DNA from: Escherichia coli O157:H7
GTDB taxonomy: Bacteria > Pseudomonadota > Gammaproteobacteria > Enterobacterales > Enterobacteriaceae
DNA: 64,000 bases
Assembly: GCF_013167455.1 (NCBI RefSeq)
Contig: NZ_CP038328.1
Reading direction: 5' to 3' (one strand)
Shown: positions 17,586 through 26,935 of the stretch, piece by piece
How the letters are laid out: each line of letters opens with the position of its first letter
How positions within the stretch are numbered: position 1 is the stretch's first letter
Program-made: the position numbers and the translations under genes
Notes under the pieces: generated by a model
Seen by the model: the letters and a program-made list of their open reading frames with translations, nothing else
Databases searched by the model: none
Told to the model about the DNA's origin: nothing

Positions 17586-20177
17586 ATGCATCAATCTGGT
17601 TCTGTTTCTCTTTGTCGTTCCGCAATATCTGTTCTGGTAGCTACAGCGTTATATTCACCCATAGCATTGGCATCAACAGTTGAGTATGGTGAGACAGTTG
17701 ATGGTGTTGTCCTGGAAAAAGATATCCAGCTGGTTTATGGGACCGCCAATAATACGAAAATCAATCCTGGCGGAGAACAGCATATTAAAGAATTTGGTAT
17801 AAGTAGTAATACTGAAATTAACGGCGGGTATCAGTACATTGAAATGAATGGCACCGCAGAATACTCAGTATTAAATGATGGTTATCAAATTGTTCAAATG
17901 GGTGGCGCGGCAAACCAGACTACGCTCAATAATGGTGTGCTACAGGTTTATGGCGCAGCGAATGATCCCACGATTAAAGGCGGGCGCTTAATCGTTGAAA
18001 AAGATGGGATTACCGTCCTTGCCGCTATCGAAAAGGGAGGATTACTGGAGGTTAAAGAGGGGGGATTAGCGATTGCGGTAGATCAGAAAGCAGGCGGTGC
18101 TATTAAAGCAAGCACGCGGGTCATGGAGGTATTCGGAACAAACCGTCTCGGTCAGTTCGAAATCAAGAATGGTATTGCTAACAATATGCTGTTGGAAAAC
18201 GGCGGAAGTTTGCGAGTTGAAGAAAATGACTTCGCTTATAATACTACTGTAGATAGTGGCGGCTTACTGGAGGTTATGGATGGCGGGACTGCAACTGGCG
18301 TTGATAAAAAAGCAGGCGGAAAATTAATTGTCTCAACGAATGCGCTGGAAGTGAGTGGTACAAACAGTAAAGGCCAATTTAGTATAAAAGATGGTGTGTC
18401 AAAAAATTATGAACTGGATGATGGTTCCGGGCTTATTGTTATGGAGGACACGCAGGCCATTGACACTATCCTCGATGAGCATGCCACTATGCAATCGCTG
18501 GGAAAGGATACTGGTACGAGAGTGCAGGCAAATGCGGTATATGATCTCGGTCGATCAGATCAGAATGGAAGTATAACGTATTCCTCTAAAGCCATCTCTG
18601 AAAATATGGTTATCAACAATGGCCGCGCTAACGTCTGGGCTGGCACAATGGTTAACGTGTCAGTCAGAGGAAATGATGGCATTCTTGAGGTTATGAAGCC
18701 GCAAATAAATTATGCACCCGCAATGTTGGTGGGTAAGGTAGTGGTTTCTGAGGGCGCTTCTTTAAGAACGCATGGTGCCGTGGATACCAGCAAAGCGGAT
18801 GTTTCGCTCGAAAATAGCGCATGGACCATCATTGCCGATATCACTACGACGAACCAAAACACCCGCCTTAACTTAGCCAACCTTGCGATGTCTGGCGCAA
18901 ATGTGATTATGATGGATGAGTCAGTGACTCGTTCATCTGTGACGGCAAGTGCGGAAAATTTCACTACGTTGACCACCAATACCCTGTCGGGAAACGGCAA
19001 TTTTTATATGCGTACCGATATGGCGAATCATCAGAGCGATCAGCTCAACGTCACCGGTCAGGCAACAGGTGATTTCAAAATATTCGTGACGGACACCGGT
19101 GCCAGCCCGGCAGCAGGAGATAGCCTTACACTGGTAACAACGGGCGGCGGTGATGCTGCATTTACGTTGGGCAATGCCGGAGGCGTTGTTGATATCGGTA
19201 CGTATGAATATACCTTGCTGGATAATGGTAACCATAGCTGGAGTCTGGCAGAGAATCGCGCGCAAATTACCCCTTCAACCACTGATGTGCTGAATATGGC
19301 GGCCGCACAACCGCTGGTATTTGATGCAGAACTGGACACCGTGCGTGAGCGTCTTGGTAGCGTAAAAGGCGTTAGTTACGATACGGCGATGTGGAGTTCG
19401 GCAATTAACACCCGCAACAACGTGACCACTGATGCGGGAGCTGGTTTTGAGCAAACATTGACGGGCCTGACGCTCGGTATCGATAGCCGTTTCTCCCGTG
19501 AAGAAAGCAGCACAATTCGCGGCTTGTTCTTTGGTTACTCTCATTCTGATATTGGTTTTGATCGCGGCGGCAAAGGCAATGTCGATAGCTATACCCTGGG
19601 GGCTTATGCCGGTTGGGAGCATCAGAACGGTGCCTATGTTGATGGAGTGGTGAAAGTTGACCGTTTTGCCAACACCATCCATGGCAAGATGAGTAATGGG
19701 GCAACAGCGTTTGGCGATTACAATAGTAACGGCGCGGGTGCTCATGTCGAGAGCGGGTTCCGTTGGGTTGACGGATTGTGGAGTGTTAGACCCTATCTGG
19801 CCTTTACCGGCTTTACCACAGATGGTCAGGACTACACGTTATCAAACGGCATGCGCGCGGATGTGGGAAATACCCGGATATTACGCGCTGAAGCGGGAAC
19901 GGCGGTAAGCTATCACATGGACCTGCAAAACGGTACGACGCTGGAACCCTGGCTGAAAGCCGCCGTGCGTCAGGAATACGCCGATTCTAACCAGGTGAAA
20001 GTTAATGACGATGGCAAATTTAATAATGATGTGGCTGGAACCCGTGGCGTTTATCAGGCTGGGATAAGGTCATCGTTTACCCCGACGTTAAGCGGTCATT
20101 TGTCAGTCAGCTATGGCAATGGCGCAGGGGTAGAATCGCCGTGGAATACCCAGGCGGGTGTGGTCTGGACGTTCTGA
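17586..20177 (+). CDS. yejO: autotransporter (AIDA/pertactin-like passenger plus beta-barrel), intact YejO
   Basis: 863 aa. Signal peptide, repetitive Gly/Asn-rich passenger with two ~80-aa tandem repeats (GGLLEV..GG.A..VD.KAGG), and a C-terminal beta-barrel ending in ...GVVWTF. Confidence 0.85.
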   Translation: MHQSGSVSLCRSAISVLVATALYSPIALASTVEYGETVDGVVLEKDIQLVYGTANNTKINPGGEQHIKEFGISSNTEINGGYQYIEMNGTAEYSVLNDGYQIVQMGGAANQTTLNNGVLQVYGAANDPTIKGGRLIVEKDGITVLAAIEKGGLLEVKEGGLAIAVDQKAGGAIKASTRVMEVFGTNRLGQFEIKNGIANNMLLENGGSLRVEENDFAYNTTVDSGGLLEVMDGGTATGVDKKAGGKLIVSTNALEVSGTNSKGQFSIKDGVSKNYELDDGSGLIVMEDTQAIDTILDEHATMQSLGKDTGTRVQANAVYDLGRSDQNGSITYSSKAISENMVINNGRANVWAGTMVNVSVRGNDGILEVMKPQINYAPAMLVGKVVVSEGASLRTHGAVDTSKADVSLENSAWTIIADITTTNQNTRLNLANLAMSGANVIMMDESVTRSSVTASAENFTTLTTNTLSGNGNFYMRTDMANHQSDQLNVTGQATGDFKIFVTDTGASPAAGDSLTLVTTGGGDAAFTLGNAGGVVDIGTYEYTLLDNGNHSWSLAENRAQITPSTTDVLNMAAAQPLVFDAELDTVRERLGSVKGVSYDTAMWSSAINTRNNVTTDAGAGFEQTLTGLTLGIDSRFSREESSTIRGLFFGYSHSDIGFDRGGKGNVDSYTLGAYAGWEHQNGAYVDGVVKVDRFANTIHGKMSNGATAFGDYNSNGAGAHVESGFRWVDGLWSVRPYLAFTGFTTDGQDYTLSNGMRADVGNTRILRAEAGTAVSYHMDLQNGTTLEPWLKAAVRQEYADSNQVKVNDDGKFNNDVAGTRGVYQAGIRSSFTPTLSGHLSVSYGNGAGVESPWNTQAGVVWTF

Positions 20178-20238
20178 TAACAGACAATAAACAGGCCCTG
20201 ATGTGTCGCGGTCTGTTTATCGAATTAAATGCAGATAT

Positions 20239-20270
20239 AAAAAAACCAACCTTTACGGTTGGTTTTTTTG
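20239..20270. terminator. hairpin with A/T runs abutting attL (likely the ancestral proL terminator and yejO terminator)
   Basis: AAAAAACCAACC-ttta-cGGTTGGTTTTTTT sits 5 bp from the left direct repeat. Confidence 0.75.
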
Positions 20271-20275
20271 GGATT

Positions 20276-20292
20276 TTTGGTCGGCACGAGAG
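20276..20292. repeat. attL core (direct repeat of the tRNA-Pro 3' end)
   Basis: TTTGGTCGGCACGAGAG is identical to 29850-29866. Confidence 0.9.
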
Positions 20293-20353
20293 TAGTTTAA
20301 TTGAGTATGTAACTACATGATTTTAAATAATATGCTTGATTCAACTTTTAAAC

Positions 20354-20377
20354 CGTATAACTAAACGTATAACTAAA
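20354..20377 (+). promoter_or_regulatory. two tandem 12-bp arm-type repeats CGTATAACTAAA
   Basis: The same 12-mer occurs four more times at 29665-29720 next to the integrase gene. Typical arrangement for integrase arm-binding sites. Confidence 0.65.
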
Positions 20378-20559
20378 ATCATTTGCTGAAAAAGTGTACA
20401 ATTTAAATGCGAGTTTTCCTGTGGTAAAAGCTCCAACCGTAACGATGTTCGTTATGGTTGCCTTGATGGTCTGCGTGGTCATTATGACCATTCAGGATTT
20501 GAAGGGTGACGCTTCCGACTTCCTCAAATTGAGGTTTCCGAAAATATCAGCGGGTTAGG

Positions 20560-20633
20560 CCAGAGTGCAAATTTGCACTCTGGAACAATTCCAACCAGTA
20601 ATCAGCGCAATTTTGCGCTTTGCTTTAAGTTCA
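20560..20633. repeat. noncoding module A: 24-bp perfect palindrome plus conserved 28-mer
   Basis: CCAGAGTGCAAATTTGCACTCTGG at 20560-20583, then CGCAATTTTGCGCTTTGCTTTAAGTTCA at 20606-20633. The 28-mer is identical to 20825-20852. Confidence 0.8.
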
Positions 20634-20791
20634 GCGAGTAACCGAAGGCGGAATTACGCCCTCGGTACTCACATATGAGAAACGATATTTCTTCCACCGA
20701 TACCCTTTATTTGGGTATCGCGAGTAAGCCCCAAAATCTGGGTGTTACTCTTACTACCCAAACTACGGGTATTTTCCGTAATTTCATGGTC

Positions 20792-20852
20792 GAGTTGCAG
20801 ATCTGCAACTCACCCACCAGCCAACGCAATTTTGCGCTTTGCTTTAAGTTCA
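20792..20852. repeat. noncoding module B: 20-bp perfect palindrome plus conserved 28-mer
   Basis: GAGTTGCAGATCTGCAACTC at 20792-20811, then the 28-mer at 20825-20852. Same order as module A, 219 bp away. Confidence 0.8.
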
Positions 20853-20857
20853 ACCAG

Positions 20858-21139
20858 TTACCGCCGTAACCGCTCCGGCTTCTTCCAGTGGTACGTAATT
20901 TTTGCTTTTTCCCTGTACGTCTGCACGCGGCGACGGTAGGCCAGCATTTCAAGAACGCGGATCCGTATGTTGCGCATATCAACGCCATTAAGTTCTATAC
21001 CATCACGGCGCATCACCTCAGCAACCACACGCGCGTAATTTTCGGCGGTCACGCTGTACGGCTGCGCGGTTTTTTCGTCAGCCTGCTGGCTGATTCCGGC
21101 GACGCGGCGGATTAATCCCAGTATTTCGGCTTCTGTCAT
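20858..21139 (-). CDS. hypothetical protein (93 aa), last gene of the satellite late operon
   Basis: ATG preceded by GGTGGAG. Follows the capsid-like gene. I recognise no motif. Confidence 0.6.
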   Translation of the reverse strand: MTEAEILGLIRRVAGISQQADEKTAQPYSVTAENYARVVAEVMRRDGIELNGVDMRNIRIRVLEMLAYRRRVQTYREKAKITYHWKKPERLRR

Positions 21140-21180
21140 TTCTCCACCTGGTCAGCTATTAAACTGCGAAAATTTCGTAA

Positions 21181-22158
21181 TTATCCCGATACGGGGATCA
21201 CCATATCGGGATTGATGCCGGAAAAATCAGCTTTCGCCAGAACGGTGACGGCCTTATCGAGTTTTTGCCATCCGCAATAGGTGATTGCCCTGAACGCTGT
21301 AGCGTCATTCTGGAAAAGGCTAACCGCCCCTGATTCGGTTTTTATTACCGCCTCATCAGTTGGGGTTATAACCGTGGCTTCAACGTTAATAATCAGCTTT
21401 TGAGCGTCTATCAGCATCATGCGATCCGCCTGTTCGCTCACAATTACCGGTATTCTCAAAAGCTCTATCTGCCAGAACTCAGCATCAGTAAGCTGTAATG
21501 CGTTTTCTACGGGCAAGATTAGCGACGACGTGGAAAGCGTGTTACCGTTCGCTATGTGCTTTTTGAAAAGCTCTATGAAGTTTTCGGCCTCATCAGCACC
21601 ATTAAGCACGCCCTCAGGGGATACGCCAGCCACCTCCTGATCACTGGAAAGAAATTTTTTATCTATTTCTTTCACCGATTCCGATGTGATCAAGTCTCTG
21701 ATCGCTGAATTGGTGCCAGGGGTGCTAAATTTGATTAGCTCGTTATTCAGCATCACAATAGCGCCAAGTTTGCACAGTTTTAGCGCGCTTTCGTTTACTT
21801 CTCCCTCTTTGACAGGGATTTCTTCTGCTTCTTTAAGCCATTTACTACCCTTGCCTGATATTGACTGCAATTTTGCGCCAAACGGAAGATTAAGCGCGCT
21901 GCTGATTAGCTTGCCTGGTACAGACTGCGAAAAAATATATTCTCCAAGCTCTCTTACTATCGGCTCTGCCACCAGCGACGGCATATTATCCGTAGTCATT
22001 CCGGCAATAATGGATTTTTCAAGAAATTTCGATACTGCCGGATCATTTCTTTTCGTCATCTCTATAGCGTCTGCATGGCTGAATTTACACGATGTAAGCA
22101 CGCTGGCGGCGCGAACTGCCGAAACGCCTTTCATGTTTTTAGAAATCATCTTCTTCAT
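21181..22158 (-). CDS. HK97-fold major capsid protein homolog (Phage_capsid-like), lone copy
   Basis: 325 aa. The pattern ...W..E.EEIPV....ES.L...KLGAIV.L.NEL......IRDLI......D..FL......P.G.LNG ... IPVIVSE......LID..... ...LFQNDATAFRA... matches my recollection of the PF05065/HK97 gp5 family layout. Confidence 0.7.
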   Translation of the reverse strand: MKKMISKNMKGVSAVRAASVLTSCKFSHADAIEMTKRNDPAVSKFLEKSIIAGMTTDNMPSLVAEPIVRELGEYIFSQSVPGKLISSALNLPFGAKLQSISGKGSKWLKEAEEIPVKEGEVNESALKLCKLGAIVMLNNELIKFSTPGTNSAIRDLITSESVKEIDKKFLSSDQEVAGVSPEGVLNGADEAENFIELFKKHIANGNTLSTSSLILPVENALQLTDAEFWQIELLRIPVIVSEQADRMMLIDAQKLIINVEATVITPTDEAVIKTESGAVSLFQNDATAFRAITYCGWQKLDKAVTVLAKADFSGINPDMVIPVSG

Positions 22159-22311: not shown

Positions 22312-22800
22312 TCAGTGTTTTAAGTCTGTTGGTGGCTTAGGGATGGGGAACCGATTTGAGTAGACACTAGCGGCATTGAGTTTTTTAACCTCTTTTTTCC
22401 CAATGCTGCCGATCTTGCGGTGGGTGAACTGGGCCAGCTTAAACGCGGCATCTAAAGCCAGTTTTGGATCTGTGTCCATGTTGTCAATCAGTATCCTGCC
22501 CATTGCTTTGATGGGGTCGGGTAGGCCGTTATCCATCATCTCAATGGTGTTAATTGATGCCCGTTCCGGTGTAACTTTTTCGGTAACTTTCTTTGTAACT
22601 TTTTTCGGTTTTGTAACCTGAAAAGTTACATCAGAAGTTACAGCCTTAAGATACTTTTTCACCTCAGGATCGTTGGATAGCTGCCAGCCTTTAACCCTTG
22701 CGGTCTTTTCGCTGTATCCAGCATGTATAGCGGCTTCCGTGGGATTTGCGCCCCTTGATAACGCATCAGCAAACCGCTTTTTTTTGGTCGTTAATGCCAT
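22312..22800 (-). CDS. terminase small subunit-like protein (Terminase_2-type N-terminal HTH)
   Basis: I chose the internal start MALTTKKKRFADALSRGANPTEAAIHAGYSEKTARVKGWQL (162 aa) with GAGG upstream. The N-terminus fits the TerS HTH pattern L..K...F......N...AA..AGYS..TA. Contains a KKVT repeat tract. Confidence 0.75.
   Translation of the reverse strand: MALTTKKKRFADALSRGANPTEAAIHAGYSEKTARVKGWQLSNDPEVKKYLKAVTSDVTFQVTKPKKVTKKVTEKVTPERASINTIEMMDNGLPDPIKAMGRILIDNMDTDPKLALDAAFKLAQFTHRKIGSIGKKEVKKLNAASVYSNRFPIPKPPTDLKH
22571..22641. repeat. array of GTAACTTT motifs (four direct, two inverted) inside the TerS-like gene
   Basis: GTAAC at 22571, 22583, 22595 (12-bp phasing) and 22613. Inverted GTTAC at 22625 and 22637. 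Confidence 0.8.
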
Positions 22801-22824
22801 GCAAAAACCTCGTTTTGAGGGGGT

Positions 22825-22845
22825 GTAACTTTTCGTGTAACTTTT
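22825..22845. repeat. two more GTAACTTTT motifs, 12 bp apart, in the 5' UTR of the TerS-like gene
   Basis: GTGTAACTTTT at 22823 and 22835. Noncoding, 25-45 bp upstream of the ATG at 22800. Confidence 0.8.
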
Positions 22846-22927
22846 TTGAAAAGCAAAATTTTCTACGAATGAGACGGGGGGCGGTGTCCAGGGCGATCGA
22901 CTTTCCGGCCGGAACACTCCCCCCCTG

Positions 22928-23089
22928 TCATTGCTCACCGAGTAACGAGATCAGGCCTTCAACTTCATCACTCAGCTTGTTTATTCGTGTCTCAAGCTCT
23001 GCGATCTTTTCCATCAATGGCGCTATGGTGTCTCTTGTTTCCTCGCCAATGGCTTTAATGATGCTTGCCTCGCGTTCTGTGATAGCCAT
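22928..23089 (-). CDS. small coiled-coil protein (53 aa), hypothetical
   Basis: Not in the track. ATG at 23089, sequence MAITEREASIIKAIGEETRDTIAPLMEKIAELETRINKLSDEVEGLISLLGEQ. Starts 4 bp after the stop of the preceding ORF. Confidence 0.45.
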   Translation of the reverse strand: MAITEREASIIKAIGEETRDTIAPLMEKIAELETRINKLSDEVEGLISLLGEQ

Positions 23090-23702: not shown

Positions 23703-23931
23703 CTTCACCTGTTCACCTTTTGATATTTTATCTTTTAATTCATAATGTTAAGGGGTGAACAGTTTCACAAAAACTATTCACCAACTATTCACCACTGTTC
23801 ACCCTTGAAGCTCAATAAACAATCAAAAAGGTGAACAGTGAATAGTTTGGTGAACAGTTCATAAATAACTGTTCACCCTATAATATACTGATATAAAAGA
23901 TATTTATGACAGGGTGAACAGTGGTGAACAG
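23703..23931. promoter_or_regulatory. replication origin: about 11 iterons CTGTTCACC/GGTGAACAG flanking an AT-rich core
   Basis: Iterons at 23709, 23754, 23774, 23785, 23795, 23830, 23849, 23869, 23913 and 23923, plus degenerate copies. AT-rich stretch at 23880-23910. Immediately downstream of the primase-helicase gene. Confidence 0.8.
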
Positions 23932-23944
23932 TTATTCCATAAGT

Positions 23945-25762
23945 TTAATTTTTGCTATCGTCATTAGTGACCGATACACATGACGGCATCCAGTCTTCTG
24001 ATTCCTCCGTCAGTGTCACGTTTGAACGCAAACCGTGCTTCGTTTTCCGTTTCATATACTCCCTGCCATATTCCGCCATTGCCCCCGGCATATCTTTACC
24101 GAAGCGCGTCAGTGTTACAGGTTTACCGAATCCGTGTGCCCTCATATATGCCAGATAGGCGTGATAAAGATACCTGCGCGGACTGAACGGAATAATTTCG
24201 GCATTACCCACTAACAGACCATCACACATTACCGACGACATGAGATAGCCGCAGAAGTCCACCAGCGAATCGCCCTCGCGTTTTATCACCAGAGCTTCTT
24301 CTGATTTCTGCTGCTCATACAGCAGGCGTTTAGCTTCGTCCTGGTCAGAAAAACGAGTAAGCAGGTGGCGAATCACAACCGCCAGCTCTCCTTCTATTTT
24401 TTCTGCCAGCATGGGGTCGCGTTCGTTTTCCGGTACAACCTCCGAAAAATTGAATATCACCCGACGACGTGAAATCCCCCCGCTGCGGTCACTGAATGAC
24501 ATGGCGTTATTGTTCACCGCCAACACTACCGCCTGAATGCGTGTTGAGTAGGGGGCTTTATGCTTCGGGTCGATTGCCACCTTGTCACCGCCTGTAATGG
24601 CCTTAATTCCTGCGCCATCACCAGCGTAACGGGTCATATCCGGCATGATAATCAGCGAAAAGCCAACCACTAACGCGCGTTCCCTGGCATCTTCCAGCGC
24701 CTTCATGCTTGCCGATACCGTGTTGGCCTTACCCGCCAGCATGGTGCAAATCTCCGCCATCACGCTTTTACCACTTCCCCCTGGACCTGTTACCTCAATG
24801 AATAACTGCCAGTCGTACCGGTTCGCCAGCACCATGAATAATGCAGCCAGTACGCGATCCGCCTTGCGGTCATTCTCAGCCACCGAACGGCGTAACCACT
24901 TCCAGAAATTCGGCGCATGTGTTGCCAGCGTTTCCCCCTCTGCTGGTGGGCTGAAAGGTAATTCACTGGCAATTAACAACCAGTCGTTTTTGTTATGCTC
25001 CCGAAAATCGCCTGTCCGGGTATCAAAAACACCGTTACTGAATCCAATCAGGTTACGGGCTGTATTCCCCATTACAGGCAAACTTAACTTCATGGTATCG
25101 ACCGCCGATTTAATGGCGTTCTGCGAATAGCTGATCTCCGCATCAATGAAAATCTGTGCCATAGCTCGCTGTAATTCTTTATCCTGTACTGGCTCCCATA
25201 CAACGCCGTTGTAATAGTGAACAGTGTCAGAGTCAGCATGAATCGCCAGTTCACCGCCATAATGTGCCAGGAGAACTTCGCCGCGTTGACTTGCTCCCAT
25301 CTGGTTAAGCGCCAGTGATGAAGCGTTATCGTCTTTTACCCGCTCTTTTTTCTTTACAGGCAGTTCAACTACCTTTTTCTTTTCCGCCTGCTCTGCCCGT
25401 TCACGTTCCAGATATTCGCGCCAGTTCTCCCGTTTCTGGCTGTGCATTCCTTCAGGGTAATAATCAGCATCCCTGACACCTGCCGCTGCCAGTTTCTGCC
25501 CGATGGTATTAACAAGCCCCGAACGCAATAACCCCGCCTGATAGAGACGCACGCGATAGCGTCCGTCCGGTACGATTTGCAGGTTGTCCAGTTCGGCAAG
25601 TTGTTGCTCTCCAAGCCAGACAGGTGGCACGTTATCGCCAGCCAGTCGCCCGTCCTGTTCCTGCCACTGCTTCGCATGTGCCCACGCATCACTACCCGCA
25701 AAAATGATGACTTCCGTCATTTTGTCACGTGGCTGGTGTTTTAAATTTGGCGCTTTTTTCAT
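23945..25762 (-). CDS. P4 alpha-like / D5-type SF3 primase-helicase (pri-rep)
   Basis: 605 aa from the ATG at 25762 (GGAGAG upstream; ATGA overlap with the upstream ORF stop). Walker A GPGGSGKS, D5_N-like region and P4-family primase C-terminal pattern. Confidence 0.8.
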   Translation of the reverse strand: MKKAPNLKHQPRDKMTEVIIFAGSDAWAHAKQWQEQDGRLAGDNVPPVWLGEQQLAELDNLQIVPDGRYRVRLYQAGLLRSGLVNTIGQKLAAAGVRDADYYPEGMHSQKRENWREYLERERAEQAEKKKVVELPVKKKERVKDDNASSLALNQMGASQRGEVLLAHYGGELAIHADSDTVHYYNGVVWEPVQDKELQRAMAQIFIDAEISYSQNAIKSAVDTMKLSLPVMGNTARNLIGFSNGVFDTRTGDFREHNKNDWLLIASELPFSPPAEGETLATHAPNFWKWLRRSVAENDRKADRVLAALFMVLANRYDWQLFIEVTGPGGSGKSVMAEICTMLAGKANTVSASMKALEDARERALVVGFSLIIMPDMTRYAGDGAGIKAITGGDKVAIDPKHKAPYSTRIQAVVLAVNNNAMSFSDRSGGISRRRVIFNFSEVVPENERDPMLAEKIEGELAVVIRHLLTRFSDQDEAKRLLYEQQKSEEALVIKREGDSLVDFCGYLMSSVMCDGLLVGNAEIIPFSPRRYLYHAYLAYMRAHGFGKPVTLTRFGKDMPGAMAEYGREYMKRKTKHGLRSNVTLTEESEDWMPSCVSVTNDDSKN

Positions 25763-26058
25763 TTCTGCTCTCTCCACGCGGCAATCATGTTTTTCAGTTC
25801 CTGTAGTTTTTTATCAACATCCATACATGGCACATGGTTATTTCTGGAAGGCGGGATTTCCCGCCTGAATCTGCTAATAAAGATCTCCACGTTCAGCGAA
25901 CTATGAAATGAATAGCCATCACGAATAAAATACACACGGTCAAACATCAGTTCTTTTACCGTTACTCTGTTACCGTTCTTATCCAGATAAATAGCGCCGG
26001 GGATAATTTTTGGGTGTGCATAACCGCTGGCAGTCAAGCCAGATAAATATGTTCTCAT
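25759..26058 (-). CDS. hypothetical protein (99 aa), DUF4222-like pattern
   Basis: AIYLDKNGNRVTVKELMFDRVYFIRDGY fits, from memory, the Y.D..G..V.V....V.F.R.GY pattern of small enterobacterial prophage proteins. Translationally coupled to pri-rep. Confidence 0.55.
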   Translation of the reverse strand: MRTYLSGLTASGYAHPKIIPGAIYLDKNGNRVTVKELMFDRVYFIRDGYSFHSSLNVEIFISRFRREIPPSRNNHVPCMDVDKKLQELKNMIAAWREQK

Positions 26059-26566: not shown

Positions 26567-26935
26567 GTTGGCAGCCTCCTCAGTGTGGTTAAGATAACCG
26601 CCACCGGAAACGCCAATTTCGCTGGTGGCGGACTGTACAGGGTTGGCGTAACCGGACACTGAAGAAACCGGCGCGGATTGCTCCGCCCCCGTACAGCCCA
26701 CCATTGATAAGGTGTGACTATGCGGCACAAAAAAACACGCGGGGCGCGTGTTATGCGCTTCAGTTTTGCCCAGGACGCCAATCCCGGCACCCGTTTTATG
26801 AGGTGCGCGGGAATCATAGCTATTTTCGACACTGGCGATCAACTGGTTTTTTTCTCCGATATTCAGGGCCAGAAAACGCCACACAAAGGCCGTTTGTGTG
26901 TGTACAAGGTGTGGTATATGATTTACGGCAACCAT
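26378..26935 (-). CDS. upstream Icd-like paralog ORF (start 26935) that stays in frame through the terminator, the RNA and the second Icd-like ORF
   Basis: AGGAG SD plus ATG at 26935. The N-terminus MVAVNHIPHLVHTQTAFVWRF parallels the 62-aa ORF. There is no stop until 26378. Whether the long product is made is doubtful. Confidence 0.3.
   Translation of the reverse strand: MVAVNHIPHLVHTQTAFVWRFLALNIGEKNQLIASVENSYDSRAPHKTGAGIGVLGKTEAHNTRPACFFVPHSHTLSMVGCTGAEQSAPVSSVSGYANPVQSATSEIGVSGGGYLNHTEEAANMATIPTLVHSQTAFLWRFIIFGASEHQIIHVTAWTEREARSRCPSGCVAVFAARIRQGVCHA
26623..26702 (-). ncRNA. candidate C4/CI-type antisense immunity RNA (tRNA-like, RNase P-substrate-like)
   Basis: On the minus strand, a 16-bp closing helix GGUGGGCUGUACGGGG/CCCUGUACAGUCCGCC has 3 G-U pairs that would be A-C mismatches on the other strand. 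It is followed by 3' ACCA. Inside are a GCAA-tetraloop hairpin and a 5-bp hairpin whose 12-nt loop UUUCUUCAGUGU is complementary to the downstream SD region. Confidence 0.55.
26729..26751 (-). terminator. rho-independent terminator upstream of the candidate RNA
   Basis: On the minus strand, ACACGCG-CCC-CGCGUGU followed by UUUUUUU. Confidence 0.75.

Follow-up and report, generated by a model that had tools for sequence, protein, structure and literature searches.

The non-coding DNA that closes the att-distal end of a P4-like satellite in Escherichia coli O157:H7 may best be read, at a probability that we put at roughly 40%, as a recombination-shuffled array of palindromes and IHF-type boxes that would act at the level of DNA, as a platform for proteins to bind, namely IHF and possibly regulators of helper phages. 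The array has a defined anatomy, recurs family-wide in related islands, carries its core in a strongly biased orientation, shows compensatory change in its small hairpins and is homologous to modules within phage Rha/Roi genes and to a palindrome at KilA-N loci. From these features we infer binding of IHF and of other proteins, and a biological role.

Position of the tail in the satellite

The window (the whole 64,000-nt stretch of DNA that was analysed) holds a 9.6-kb P4-like/PICI satellite integrated at tRNA-Pro, which was delimited by the att repeat, the tRNA gene and gene order.

20276-20292: att-distal copy of the 17-nt att direct repeat TTTGGTCGGCACGAGAG, end of the island
29850-29866: second att copy; the exact 17-mer is present in both
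29852-29928, minus strand: tRNA-Pro, its 3' end overlapped by the att copy at 29850-29866
20351-20374, plus strand: tandem AACCGTATAACT/AAACGTATAACT repeats, inside the integrase-specific arm 20293-20403
20858-21139, minus strand: 93-aa gene (phrog_1561), the last late-operon gene in all PICI subtypes examined

The positions of the att repeat place the duplicated region that drew attention to this DNA between the last island gene (20858-21139, minus strand) and the att-distal junction. The non-coding tail spans 20293-20857, from the att repeat to the 93-aa gene. The first-pass annotation was right about this setting: the DNA is non-coding, has the look of a cis-acting region and closes a satellite on its att-distal side. 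Genes for a Terminase_2-family TerS and a capsid-family protein adjoin the tail, and in the circular form of the island the tail lies immediately downstream of the late operon. The arm 20293-20403 has matches only in L004, L005, L008 and L057, all of them islands with the same att site, and we infer that its AACCGTATAACT/AAACGTATAACT repeats are putative arm-type Int sites.

The 93-aa gene is a genuine coding gene, with substitutions by codon position of 2275/1518/4403. Its protein matched nothing among PDB sequences, in Pfam or in PADLOC, its AF2 model (pLDDT 70.6, three helices) gave no fold match and no recognisable DNA-binding fold, and a scan of genome contigs with the protein returned one locus only. 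As the first-pass annotation had held, no ORF with a coding signature lies within 20394-20869: Pfam has no match for the 54-aa and 64-aa ORFs, and the plus-strand ORFs at 20394-20558 and 20675-20869 have no family match and lack third-position bias. Coding on the strand antisense to the 93-aa gene was rejected on the same two grounds. In the 64-aa frame, substitutions between the window and L003 (read by eye from alignments) fall 2/5/3 by codon position.

Anatomy of the tail

Every element that had been described earlier was recovered, in place or at most 1 nt off. The tail is laid out as follows.

20435-20459, plus strand: hairpin AACCGTAACGA-tgt-TCGTTATGGTT with one plus-strand G.T pair; opens the shared tail
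20476-20490: S1-type module palindrome TGGTCATtATGACCA
20517-20559, plus strand: module M0, with palindrome CCTCAAATTGAGG (20522-20534), linker TTTCCGAAAAT and core ATCAGCGGGTTAGG (20546-20559)
20560-20583: Pal A, CCAGAGTGCAAATTTGCACTCTGG, 24 bp, perfect 12+12
20604-20643, plus strand: module M1 (unit A, gene-end copy), with hairpin AGCGCAAttTTGCGCT (20604-20619), 28-mer (20606-20633) and degenerate core TTCAGCGAGTAACC (20630-20643)
20641-20666: hairpin ACCGAAGGCG-gaatta-CGCCCTCGGT
20696-20816: conserved core block, about 120 nt, with hairpins at 20698-20720, about 20724-20752 and 20755-20771, and Pal B
20792-20811: Pal B, GAGTTGCAGATCTGCAACTC, perfect 10+10
20814-20821, minus strand: Chi GCTGGTGG, the same site as the unit B box CCCACCAG
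20824-20862, plus strand: module M2 (unit B, resident gene-end copy), with hairpin, 28-mer (20825-20852) and core TTCAACCAGTTACC (20849-20862)

The two identical 28-mers CGCAATTTTGCGCTTTGCTTTAAGTTCA reported at 20606-20633 and 20825-20852 are indeed present, and they are embedded in a longer direct repeat of 53 nt (83% identity) whose copies lie 219 nt apart. The boxes noticed earlier, CCAACCAG in unit A and CCCACCAG in unit B, were found 5' of their 28-mers; that of unit A is not a Chi. A Chi-based protection role was considered and rejected: although Chi is enriched in the related tails, it does not keep one orientation there, and a single Chi, on the minus strand, is present in this window. 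The 93-aa gene ends inside the M2 core, which covers its stop codon (TAA; TTA on the plus strand, 20858-20860). At 20641-20666 the single plus-strand A.C mismatch becomes a G.U pair on the minus strand, as had been noted; among relatives the conserved kernel of this hairpin is GGCGGAATTCCGCC, and in L003-type islands the same hairpin module is found across the core block, on the opposite side.

The density of hairpins and the fold scores are beyond chance. Seven perfect hairpins with a stem of at least 6 bp occur in 20420-20870, against a window-wide 1.0 +/- 1.07 per 450 nt, and the fold z-scores are -11.2 on the plus and -11.6 on the minus strand.

A family of modules in related islands

Related tails are mosaics of modules of about 45 nt, each composed of a variable palindrome of 11-14 nt, a linker and an ATCAA-N4-TTA core, and both the order and the copy number of the modules vary between islands. 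The same pieces appear rearranged and in different numbers in L003, L004, L007, L009, L023, L030, L067 and L115; the S1 slot is occupied elsewhere by TAATCATAATGATTA, GTGATTATCATCAC or GGTCATCATGACC, and in L009 and L023 a stretch of about 132 nt is repeated in tandem. In L005, which has the same att site and the same annotated order of terS and capsid genes, 20559-21150 is missing and the break falls exactly after the M0 core, while in L200 a deletion has one end in the middle of Pal A and the other in the middle of the M1 hairpin. There is no module that all islands possess, so the array gives no sign of a single essential function.

Across 48 distinct tails, where counts are inflated because the loci were fetched with module-derived patterns, the core ATCAR-N4-TTASS lies 104 times one way and 0 times the other, and the strict IHF consensus is split 78 to 7 by orientation and reaches 2.33 per kb, 23-fold above the background of 0.10 per kb. 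In alignment columns ATCA and TTA are invariant and the N4 between them is free. In 65 modules (28 distinct sequences) the core is preceded, at a distance of 7-13 nt, by a perfect stem of 5 bp or more, compared with 5% of random positions. Core-to-core distances favour multiples of 3 (38/68).

With a cut-off of 90% identity, the core block of this window occurs in 12% of complete E. coli genomes (654 of 5426), and EcCICFT073/Nissle-type tails are without it. It is 92-100% conserved, while the adjoining gene is 86-90% identical in several pairs.

Compensatory change and the fate of the palindromes

The first-pass annotation had taken the two perfect palindromes, which differ in sequence, as a sign of compensatory change. 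Such change does occur in this family of tails, in the small hairpins; it does not connect Pal A with Pal B, which are different modules and not co-varying forms of one site. Among the relatives Pal A decays one-sidedly, with pair-breaking changes in L067, L197 and L198 and loss of one half in L200, and Pal B is invariant in all related tails. A scan with a 16-mer of Pal A gave chance matches only and no informative occurrence elsewhere. The core block likewise shows no covariation in related tails; being invariant, it and Pal B are uninformative on compensatory change.

Compensatory swaps are seen in the hairpin of the 28-mer module and its relatives (GCGCAA/TTGCGC against GCTCAA/TTGAGC, CCTCAA/TTGAGG against CCTGCA/TGCAGG, and others). 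In the small S2 hairpin, subject to the choice of sequences, double changes affect 5 of 6 pairs and 96.4% of cells are paired, compared with 74% in shuffles, none of 500 of which reached as high a value. This hairpin thus appears to be a structure kept by compensatory change, although in a DNA palindrome such change can arise through template-switch mutation with no need of selection.

Similarity to phage antirepressor genes

Palindrome-plus-core modules, in several allelic forms, are also found within the Rha/Roi genes of lambdoid and Stx phages. M0 is the module with the closest match inside phage roi genes, at 33/36 nt to HK620 roi and, over 30 nt (roi nt 122-151), 96.7%. Three further module variants of PICIs match other Rha-family alleles of Stx phages, and each allele retains a palindrome though the encoded amino acids differ. 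The HK620 Roi protein has the domains Phage_pRha and ANT, and a viral scan with Roi yielded 80 near-identical loci. In L115 the junction between a 5' fragment of roi and PICI sequence falls exactly at a module. For the 28-mer subtype, phages offered no counterpart at E <= 1. The Pal B palindrome (18-22 bp) recurs within genes that encode a KilA-N domain; at other KilA-N genes it lies upstream, at a distance of about 130-150 bp. We rejected a decayed full-length Rha or KilA-N pseudogene as the source of the tail, for similarity in protein and DNA is restricted to the modules.

Roi reportedly binds a site within its own gene, beside an IHF site, in the 1996 work of Clerget and Boccard. Regulation of Rha-family genes by IHF is mentioned in a passage of PMC4936722 that cites Henthorn & Friedman 1995. 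Our literature search on the sequences themselves found nothing relevant.

Proposed organization and function of the array

The two units are copies of one gene-end module of about 45-53 nt, in which the hairpin GCGCAAttTTGCGC is followed by a T-rich linker and then by a degenerate core, TTCAAC-N2-GTTACC. The resident one is copy B, overlapping the stop codon of the 93-aa gene, and copy A is an internalised duplicate that still bears a ...GTAACCG remnant; the duplication, presumably produced by unequal or illegitimate recombination between such modules, flanks the separately conserved block of about 120 nt that holds Pal B. The gene-end module itself belongs to a family defined by a small palindrome, about 11 nt and an ATCAA-N4-TTA(S)(S) box. 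Such boxes, together with the other hairpin modules, make up the whole tail, from the last late gene to attP/att, in P4-like PICIs of E. coli.

The conserved core, with ATCA and TTA fixed and N4 free, is a putative IHF site, and the neighbouring palindromes may be sites for dimeric DNA-binding proteins or cruciform-prone elements. We scored as the IHF feature the consensus WATCAANNNNTTR with an A/T-rich 5' flank. The M0 core with its preceding T, TATCAGCGGGTTA, is one mismatch away from this consensus; M2 has two mismatches and M1 about four, and the strict consensus has no match in the tail of this window. The degenerate cores of both 28-mer modules here, GTTCAGCGAGTAA and GTTCAACCAGTTA, count against the IHF reading. 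Moreover, one sequence-specific protein cannot read all the differing palindromes of one array, and the uniform orientation of the cores could be a mere outcome of their origin by tandem duplication.

A further proposal, which we consider unlikely, is that the tail forms a library of mimic operators for DNA-binding proteins of the helper antirepressor families, with Rha/Roi-type boxes accompanied by an IHF site and with Pal B as a KilA-N-associated palindrome. If this were true, several palindrome alleles in one array would allow regulators from different helpers to be bound, and a satellite at high copy could titrate these regulators, which would amount to interference, or use their arrival as a cue. 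As a corollary, Rha-domain genes would hold a palindrome-plus-IHF operator that co-varies with the amino acids encoded there.

Alternative explanations

The tail may instead be recombination debris without a function of its own, assembled from fragments of antirepressor genes and from duplicated 3' ends of the 93-aa gene; we rate this as improbable but not negligible, and at equally modest odds its palindromes would persist or become "perfected" by template-switch mutation (quasi-palindrome correction). Breakpoints of the mosaic at module edges, the L115 fusion of a roi 5' fragment to PICI DNA, internal M copies that still bear traces of the final codons of the 93-aa gene, the absence of each module from some island and the decay of Pal A among relatives all agree with it, and the spacing bias of the cores fits an origin from coding sequence. 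It accounts less well for the fact that only the palindrome-plus-core unit of about 45 nt, and not the flanking coding sequence, is common to the phage genes, for a hairpin-to-core distance that is fixed across 28 sequence variants, for ATCA and TTA staying invariant while N4 varies, and for a core block better conserved than the neighbouring gene in several pairs. The hairpins could also act in RNA, as stabilisers or a processing platform in the 3'-UTR of the late operon (minus strand) or as weak terminators or small RNAs (plus strand), which seems to us rather doubtful. Fold z-scores near -11 on both strands, the compensatory pairs of the small hairpins and the place of the tail directly 3' of the late operon in the circular form are what such a role would lead one to expect. 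Imperfect hairpin variants have plus-strand G.T and A.C pairs in a ratio of 4 to 1 (by-eye reading), M1 is terminator-like on the plus strand, and weak plus-strand terminator-like sites lie at 20604-20619 and 20755-20771, while the second 28-mer copy does not score. The minus strand, however, has no terminator-like site, and wobble pairs disagree on the strand, those at 20435-20459 and in the L197 change pointing to one and that at 20641-20666 to the other. The stems are short with centres of 1-4 nt, conservation is highest in a core that looks single-stranded and fits a DNA-binding consensus, the core block is without covariation, and the identical type of module is embedded in protein-coding roi genes. 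The pair of small RNAs suggested by the first-pass annotation also lacks support: Rfam 15 has no match to 20293-20860 at the gathering threshold (E <= 10 gives sub-threshold noise only), no sigma-70-like promoter was scored in 20100-21400, and the G.U evidence is discordant between strands.

An operator pair, in which a single dimeric regulator would recognise TGCA-N4-TGCA in Pal A and Pal B and control the 93-aa gene or int, is in our judgement very improbable. The motif occurs in both palindromes and nowhere else in the island, YGCAA-N2-TTGCR has 5 matches against 1.08 expected, 3 of them within the tail, and Pal B is invariant; but Pal A is not conserved and is missing from most tails that bear Pal B, the two palindromes occupy non-homologous positions, and the promoter regions of the island are all free of such a site. 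The earlier operator reading keeps a measure of support where Pal B is concerned, given the recurrence of this palindrome within or close to KilA-N antirepressor genes. The tail as a packaging site (pac or cosB-like) for the small terminase of the island, with repeats and IHF-type bends wrapping DNA round TerS, strikes us as a long shot. In its favour we counted the Terminase_2-family TerS and capsid-family genes beside the tail, and the combination of repeats with IHF sites, which recalls lambda cosB and P1 pac, as well as the two cos sites of EcCICFT073 (PMC6092414, PMC6739421). The lambda cosN GGGCGGCGACCT with flanking cosQ has no match in the island, the tail having been searched to 2 mismatches, while the same search found two perfect copies each in L003 and L004; the P22 pac consensus AAGATTTATCTG (from PMC10996546), compared by eye, is not matched either. 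EcCICFT073-type islands whose two lambda-like cos sites lie elsewhere still hold modules, and the tail is common to four packaging modules (TerS with capsid, Rpp with cos, ClpP-capsid with DUF1441, and neighbouring TerL). L005 keeps the att site and the terS-plus-capsid order without units A and B. The cos/pac role suggested earlier for the units is not supported. A P4-type origin or crr was rejected because the ten TGTTCACC type I iterons lie at 23709-23931, directly 3' of the primase gene, and none in 20293-20857. Integron attC, IS200/IS605, oriT and HUH-type hairpin-plus-cleavage elements, judged by architecture only, were set aside as the island lacks a matching enzyme; we know of no nic site that the tail resembles.

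Comparison with known systems

How Gram-negative PICIs sense or interfere with helper phages is partly understood, and the known cases are Rpp and the cos sites. The analysis adds a family-wide non-coding array at the end of the satellite, whose units match cis-elements embedded in the antirepressor genes of helpers (roi/rha, kilA-N). This connects satellites, in a way that is open to experiment, with phage regulators of a class that is still poorly understood, and it accounts for the strong mosaicism of this end of the island. Even if the array were debris only, it would still record recurrent exchange of satellites with the lambdoid nin/antirepressor region.

The cos1/cos2 sites of EcCICFT073 and lambda cosB (R sites, IHF site I1) resemble the tail in being cis-acting, repeated, IHF-associated and near PICI packaging genes, and duplicated sites are already known in PICIs (PMC6092414, PMC6739421). 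However, the EcCICFT073-type cos sites flank rpp, apart from the tail modules, and the tail here has neither cosN nor cosQ. With P4 the island shares a P4-like replicon; all 10 iterons of the island lie outside the tail, unlike an ori/crr arrangement. In P4, crr is a direct repeat pair far from ori.

By architecture only, the tail is like the BIME-1/RIP (RIB) elements of E. coli, which are extragenic, stand after the last gene of an operon and form a mosaic of palindromic units and conserved IHF-consensus linkers in variable order and copy number. The satellite modules occur nowhere but in the tails of satellites and the antirepressor genes of phages, whereas BIMEs are dispersed over the chromosome, and the satellite palindromes are far shorter; to our knowledge the modules do not resemble the REP consensus. 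Plasmid centromere arrays (F sopC, P1 parS) likewise place, after a small gene, direct repeats of about 43-45 bp each with an inverted repeat, and P1 parS also includes an IHF site. The satellite tail differs from them in its differing palindromes per tail, in the lack of a ParA-type gene and in a 93-aa protein with no recognisable DNA-binding fold.

The Roi/IHF site in lambdoid roi is like the satellite module in its unit of about 45 nt, built of a 13-nt palindrome, about 11 nt and ATCAA-N4-TTAGG; its identity with the published sites is presumed. The 28-mer subtype of this window, unlike M0, is without a counterpart in phages. In the phages the module is a single copy within Rha-domain coding sequence, whereas satellites carry 1-5 non-coding copies in tandem orientation.

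Island organization and the tail

The window lies in the E. coli narP-yejO-proL region and carries a 9.6-kb island bounded by a 17-nt direct repeat (20276-20292 and 29850-29866), the att repeat, which overlaps the 3' end of tRNA-Pro. Every island gene is on the - strand, including the following.

28392-29651, - strand, integrase
27689-27895, - strand, AlpA
26621-26806, - strand, C4 and isrK RNAs (Rfam hits)
25759-26058, - strand, DUF4222
23945-25777, - strand, primase/helicase
22312-22938, - strand, TerS (Terminase_2 family)
21181-22158, - strand, capsid-family protein
20858-21139, - strand, 93-aa gene (phrog_1561)

An Icd-like gene adjoins the C4 antisense RNA and isrK (26621-26806), and this set is a P1/P4-type immunity module in an island with a PICI-like late region (PICIs being phage satellites). 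Ten P4-type iterons (CTGTTCACC/GGTGAACAG) lie in both orientations at 23709-23931, directly downstream of the primase gene, and are absent from the rest of the island. These iterons form the replication origin of the island, which has a P4-like replicon; the tail was thus rejected as an origin.

The tail is the 565 bp of non-coding sequence between the last gene and att, and it contains the duplicated units. We read it as a DNA-level array of protein-binding modules, built and reshuffled by recombination, in which each module would consist of an IHF-type core and an adjoining palindrome. Its first 110 nt (20293-20403) are common only to islands at the same att site and are taken to be a putative integrase arm, while the sequence from about 20420 on is also present in islands at other sites. 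A complete island of the same family was deposited as a circular 'plasmid' record of 10,790 bp (NZ_CP148328.1), which may be the excised episomal form. The order there is 93-aa gene, tail, attP and int, on one strand and co-directional. The tail might also have a role in insulation or regulation of int.

The 93-aa gene is clearly coding (pairwise differences of 2275/1518/4403 by codon position). Its product belongs to a narrow enterobacterial family (37 clusters at 50% identity) with an invariant C-terminus, YxWKKPERLRR, and no fold relative of it was detected. Among the late-region genes of EcCICFT073, c1503 (RppA) was the sole inhibitor of lambda (PMC6739421). The antisense codon-aligned frame of the 93-aa gene (20888-21115, +) is open in 24/24 variants, and in L004, an EcCICFT073-type locus, it continues across the tail without a stop for 200 codons; its variation by codon position is non-coding, and it was rejected as a gene.

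Anatomy of the duplicated units

The first-pass annotation described two units, each with a perfect palindrome and a shared 28-mer, in a non-coding region between the last late gene and att. This anatomy was reproduced in the sequence: Pal A is a perfect 24-bp palindrome at 20560-20583, Pal B a perfect 20-bp one at 20792-20811, and the identical 28-mers (20606-20633 and 20825-20852) are 219 nt apart, inside a 53-nt direct repeat of 83% identity with the same spacing. The + strand ORFs of the tail have neither a family match nor third-position bias and were rejected as genes. One of them (20394-20558, +) encodes a hydrophobic peptide, ...ALMVCVVIMTIQDL...LRFPKISAG, with a similar frame in L004. 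A weak third-position bias (7/5/4), together with 'conservation' that arises from a palindromic module of the S1 type and the module M0 (20517-20559), makes it unlikely to be a gene. The unit B box CCCACCAG (20814-20821) is Chi (GCTGGTGG) on the - strand; 1-3 Chi sites within ~0.4-1.1 kb, mostly on the + strand, occur in the tails of L001, L003, L004, L009, L054 and others, and their orientation varies among islands.

The 28-mer consists of the hairpin, linker and core start of one module subtype, and the last copy of this subtype overlaps the 93-aa stop codon in every case. The end of this gene, ...CGG CGG TAA, reads GTTACCGCCG on the + strand, and remnants of it (GTAACCG, GTTACCGCGCCG, GTTACCGCCAGC) are retained in internal copies. 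The duplicated units are two copies of the gene-end module.

Module mosaic across islands

Tails were collected from complete E. coli genomes and viral-contig scans and then compared. They proved to be mosaics of short modules, which differ between islands in order and in copy number. The commonest module has a variable palindrome of 11-14 nt, a linker of ~11 nt (TTTCCGAAAAT, TTTGCTTTAAG, ATTGTGAATA and others) and then a conserved core, ATCAAC-N2-GTTA(C/G)(C/G). The exact two-unit layout of the window was found, at >=80% query coverage, in only 22/5426 genomes. L009 and L023 carry 2 or 3 module copies, in a tandem unit of ~132 nt. An island with the same att site and the same terS-plus-capsid gene order (L005 and many O157:H7 strains) is without 20559-21150, its breakpoint being exactly where the M0 core ends. 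In L200, a deletion has joined Pal A and the hairpin of M1, the unit A copy (20604-20643), at their midpoints. From these tandems and breakpoints, unit A is a copy of the gene-end module that has become internal, and recombination between modules would explain the duplication.

Inter-core distances are biased to multiples of 3 (38/68 distinct segments from 87 distinct tails, the segments not being independent), including the 84 and 219 nt of the window, which hints that the modules may descend from in-frame coding repeats.

Conservation of the core and hairpin

Among 48 distinct tails, at loci retrieved with module-derived patterns, the module core occurs 104 times in the + sense of the window and 0 times in reverse; the strict IHF consensus WATCAANNNNTTR is split 78 vs 7 by orientation, and its density is 2.33 per kb where the background has 0.10. 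Across 14 aligned module variants, the columns that never vary are ATCA and TTA on either side of a free N4, exactly the positions that the IHF consensus constrains. This conservation pattern suggests that IHF binds the module cores. As a caveat, the cores of the window itself are degenerate (TATCAGCGGGTTA, GTTCAGCGAGTAA, GTTCAACCAGTTA) and its tail holds no strict IHF consensus. The palindrome-to-core spacing is fixed across 65 modules, among which the hairpin takes 28 different sequences; such a hairpin is found at only 5% of random positions.

The first-pass annotation had proposed aligning homologous islands for co-variation of the palindrome arms. The small module hairpins do show it, with compensatory double changes in 5/6 pairs (13-nt register) and paired cells at 96.4% vs 74% in shuffles (0/500 reach the observed value), figures to be read with the caveats that some sequences were selected for having hairpins and that template-switch mutation can perfect DNA palindromes without selection. 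The large palindromes do not. Pal A carries one-sided, pair-breaking changes in three loci (L067, L197, L198) and is half-deleted in L200, and Pal B is constant in all related tails compared.

Modules inside phage antirepressor genes

Phage matches of the tail fall solely inside roi/antirepressor genes. M0 matches HK620 roi, whose product has a Phage_pRha domain and, after it, an ANT domain, at 33/36 nt over codons 41-52, and counterparts of three more PICI-tail module variants lie in other Rha-family alleles, from Stx and lambdoid phages. These alleles differ in the encoded residues, yet each retains a palindrome, maintained through compensatory changes, and then ATCAAYRRSTTAGG.

Residues and palindromes of Rha-family alleles
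HK620 roi, LPQIEV, CCTCAAATTGAGG
Stx2_14040, LPPMGI, CCCCCAATGGGG
Stx2_EH2201, SAPMAN, CGCCAATGGCG
CP-1639 roi, LPALQV, CCTGCATTGCAGG
L082, LPPMEV, CCTCCAATGGAGG

The palindrome and IHF-consensus box lie at codons ~41-56 of Rha-domain genes (roi, 'DNA-binding protein') of lambdoid/Stx phages (L006 1201-1245; L202, L203 and L204 ~700-745; L082/L098). The similarity between tails and genes is limited to gene nt 108-168; therefore the tails are not decayed whole Rha/Roi genes. The 28-mer subtype had no counterpart in the phage comparison. IHF regulation of Rha-family genes is reported (PMC4936722).

The tail of a small AlpA/PerC-bearing element (L115 12400-12720) shares 44 identical nt with roi, a stretch that reaches 5' beyond the palindrome and is fused at a module to PICI-type sequence. 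Past the junction come two further modules of the Rha type and one palindrome like Pal A; the element looks like a phage-satellite recombinant.

The palindrome of Pal B (18-22 bp) occurs within the coding sequence of KilA-N domain genes, as the codons for ELQICNS (L211 5504, L214 483, L255 6386), and ~130-150 bp upstream of others (L206 1231, L243 2452, L247 1523). The upstream copies lie ~20 nt past the terminator of an RNA gene that by eye looks c4-like (promoter, hairpin, T-run), an immI-like arrangement. That helper Rha/Roi- or KilA-N-type proteins bind the palindromes, making the tail a decoy or sensor array, is a speculative and rather unlikely extension of our reading.

Alternative readings

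Functionless recombination debris heads the four rivals that we weighed; the fixed hairpin-to-core spacing across tails speaks against it. An RNA-level role comes next. The stretch 20420-20870 has 7 perfect hairpins (stem >=6 bp) in 450 nt vs 1.0 +/- 1.07 elsewhere in the window, and fold z values against shuffled sequence are -11.2 (+ strand) and -11.6 (- strand). An sRNA pair nevertheless found no support: the tail has no Rfam match, scanning found no promoter-like site, and wobble pairs are contradictory as to the RNA strand. The hairpin at 20641-20666, which has a single A.C mismatch on the + strand as first described, indicates the - strand, whereas 20435-20459 and the L197 variant indicate the + strand. 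A block of ~120 nt including Pal B (20696-20816) is present at >=90% identity in 654/5426 complete E. coli genomes and was not found in the EcCICFT073/Nissle-type tail; double changes occur in 0/42 of its predicted pairs, its variation being too low for a test. The viral contig L225 has two Pal B copies with partial blocks (9563 and 9997, 434 nt apart), and therefore this block can also be duplicated.

A pac site is the third rival. Of the suggested cos/pac identities, a lambda-type cos site was rejected, because the island has no cosN; the modules also persist in islands with cos elsewhere. In each of L003 and L004 (EcCICFT073-type) the 93-aa gene is accompanied by two perfect lambda-like cos sites, which flank an rpp-like gene in L004 and lie just past the 93-aa gene in L003, in agreement with the published cos1/cos2 of EcCICFT073 (PMC6092414, PMC6739421). 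Both islands still retain the 93-aa gene and modules. Nor is the tail tied to one packaging system, as it is common to islands with TerS+capsid, Rpp+cos, ClpP-capsid fusion+DUF1441 and a neighbouring TerL. The last rival is an operator pair. The proposal that Pal A and Pal B are co-varying forms of one site fell with the one-sided changes in Pal A and the invariance of Pal B; the two are not variants of one site. Scan matches to the 16-mer core of Pal A were taken as chance only.

Comparison with known systems

No description of the tail array was found in the PICI papers examined or in a literature search with sequences. The array resembles BIME/RIP elements, in which palindromic units are combined with IHF sites, in architecture only. 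An architectural likeness is also seen with the intragenic Roi/IHF site of phages, where Roi reportedly binds within its own gene, beside an IHF site, as Clerget and Boccard are said to have described in 1996.
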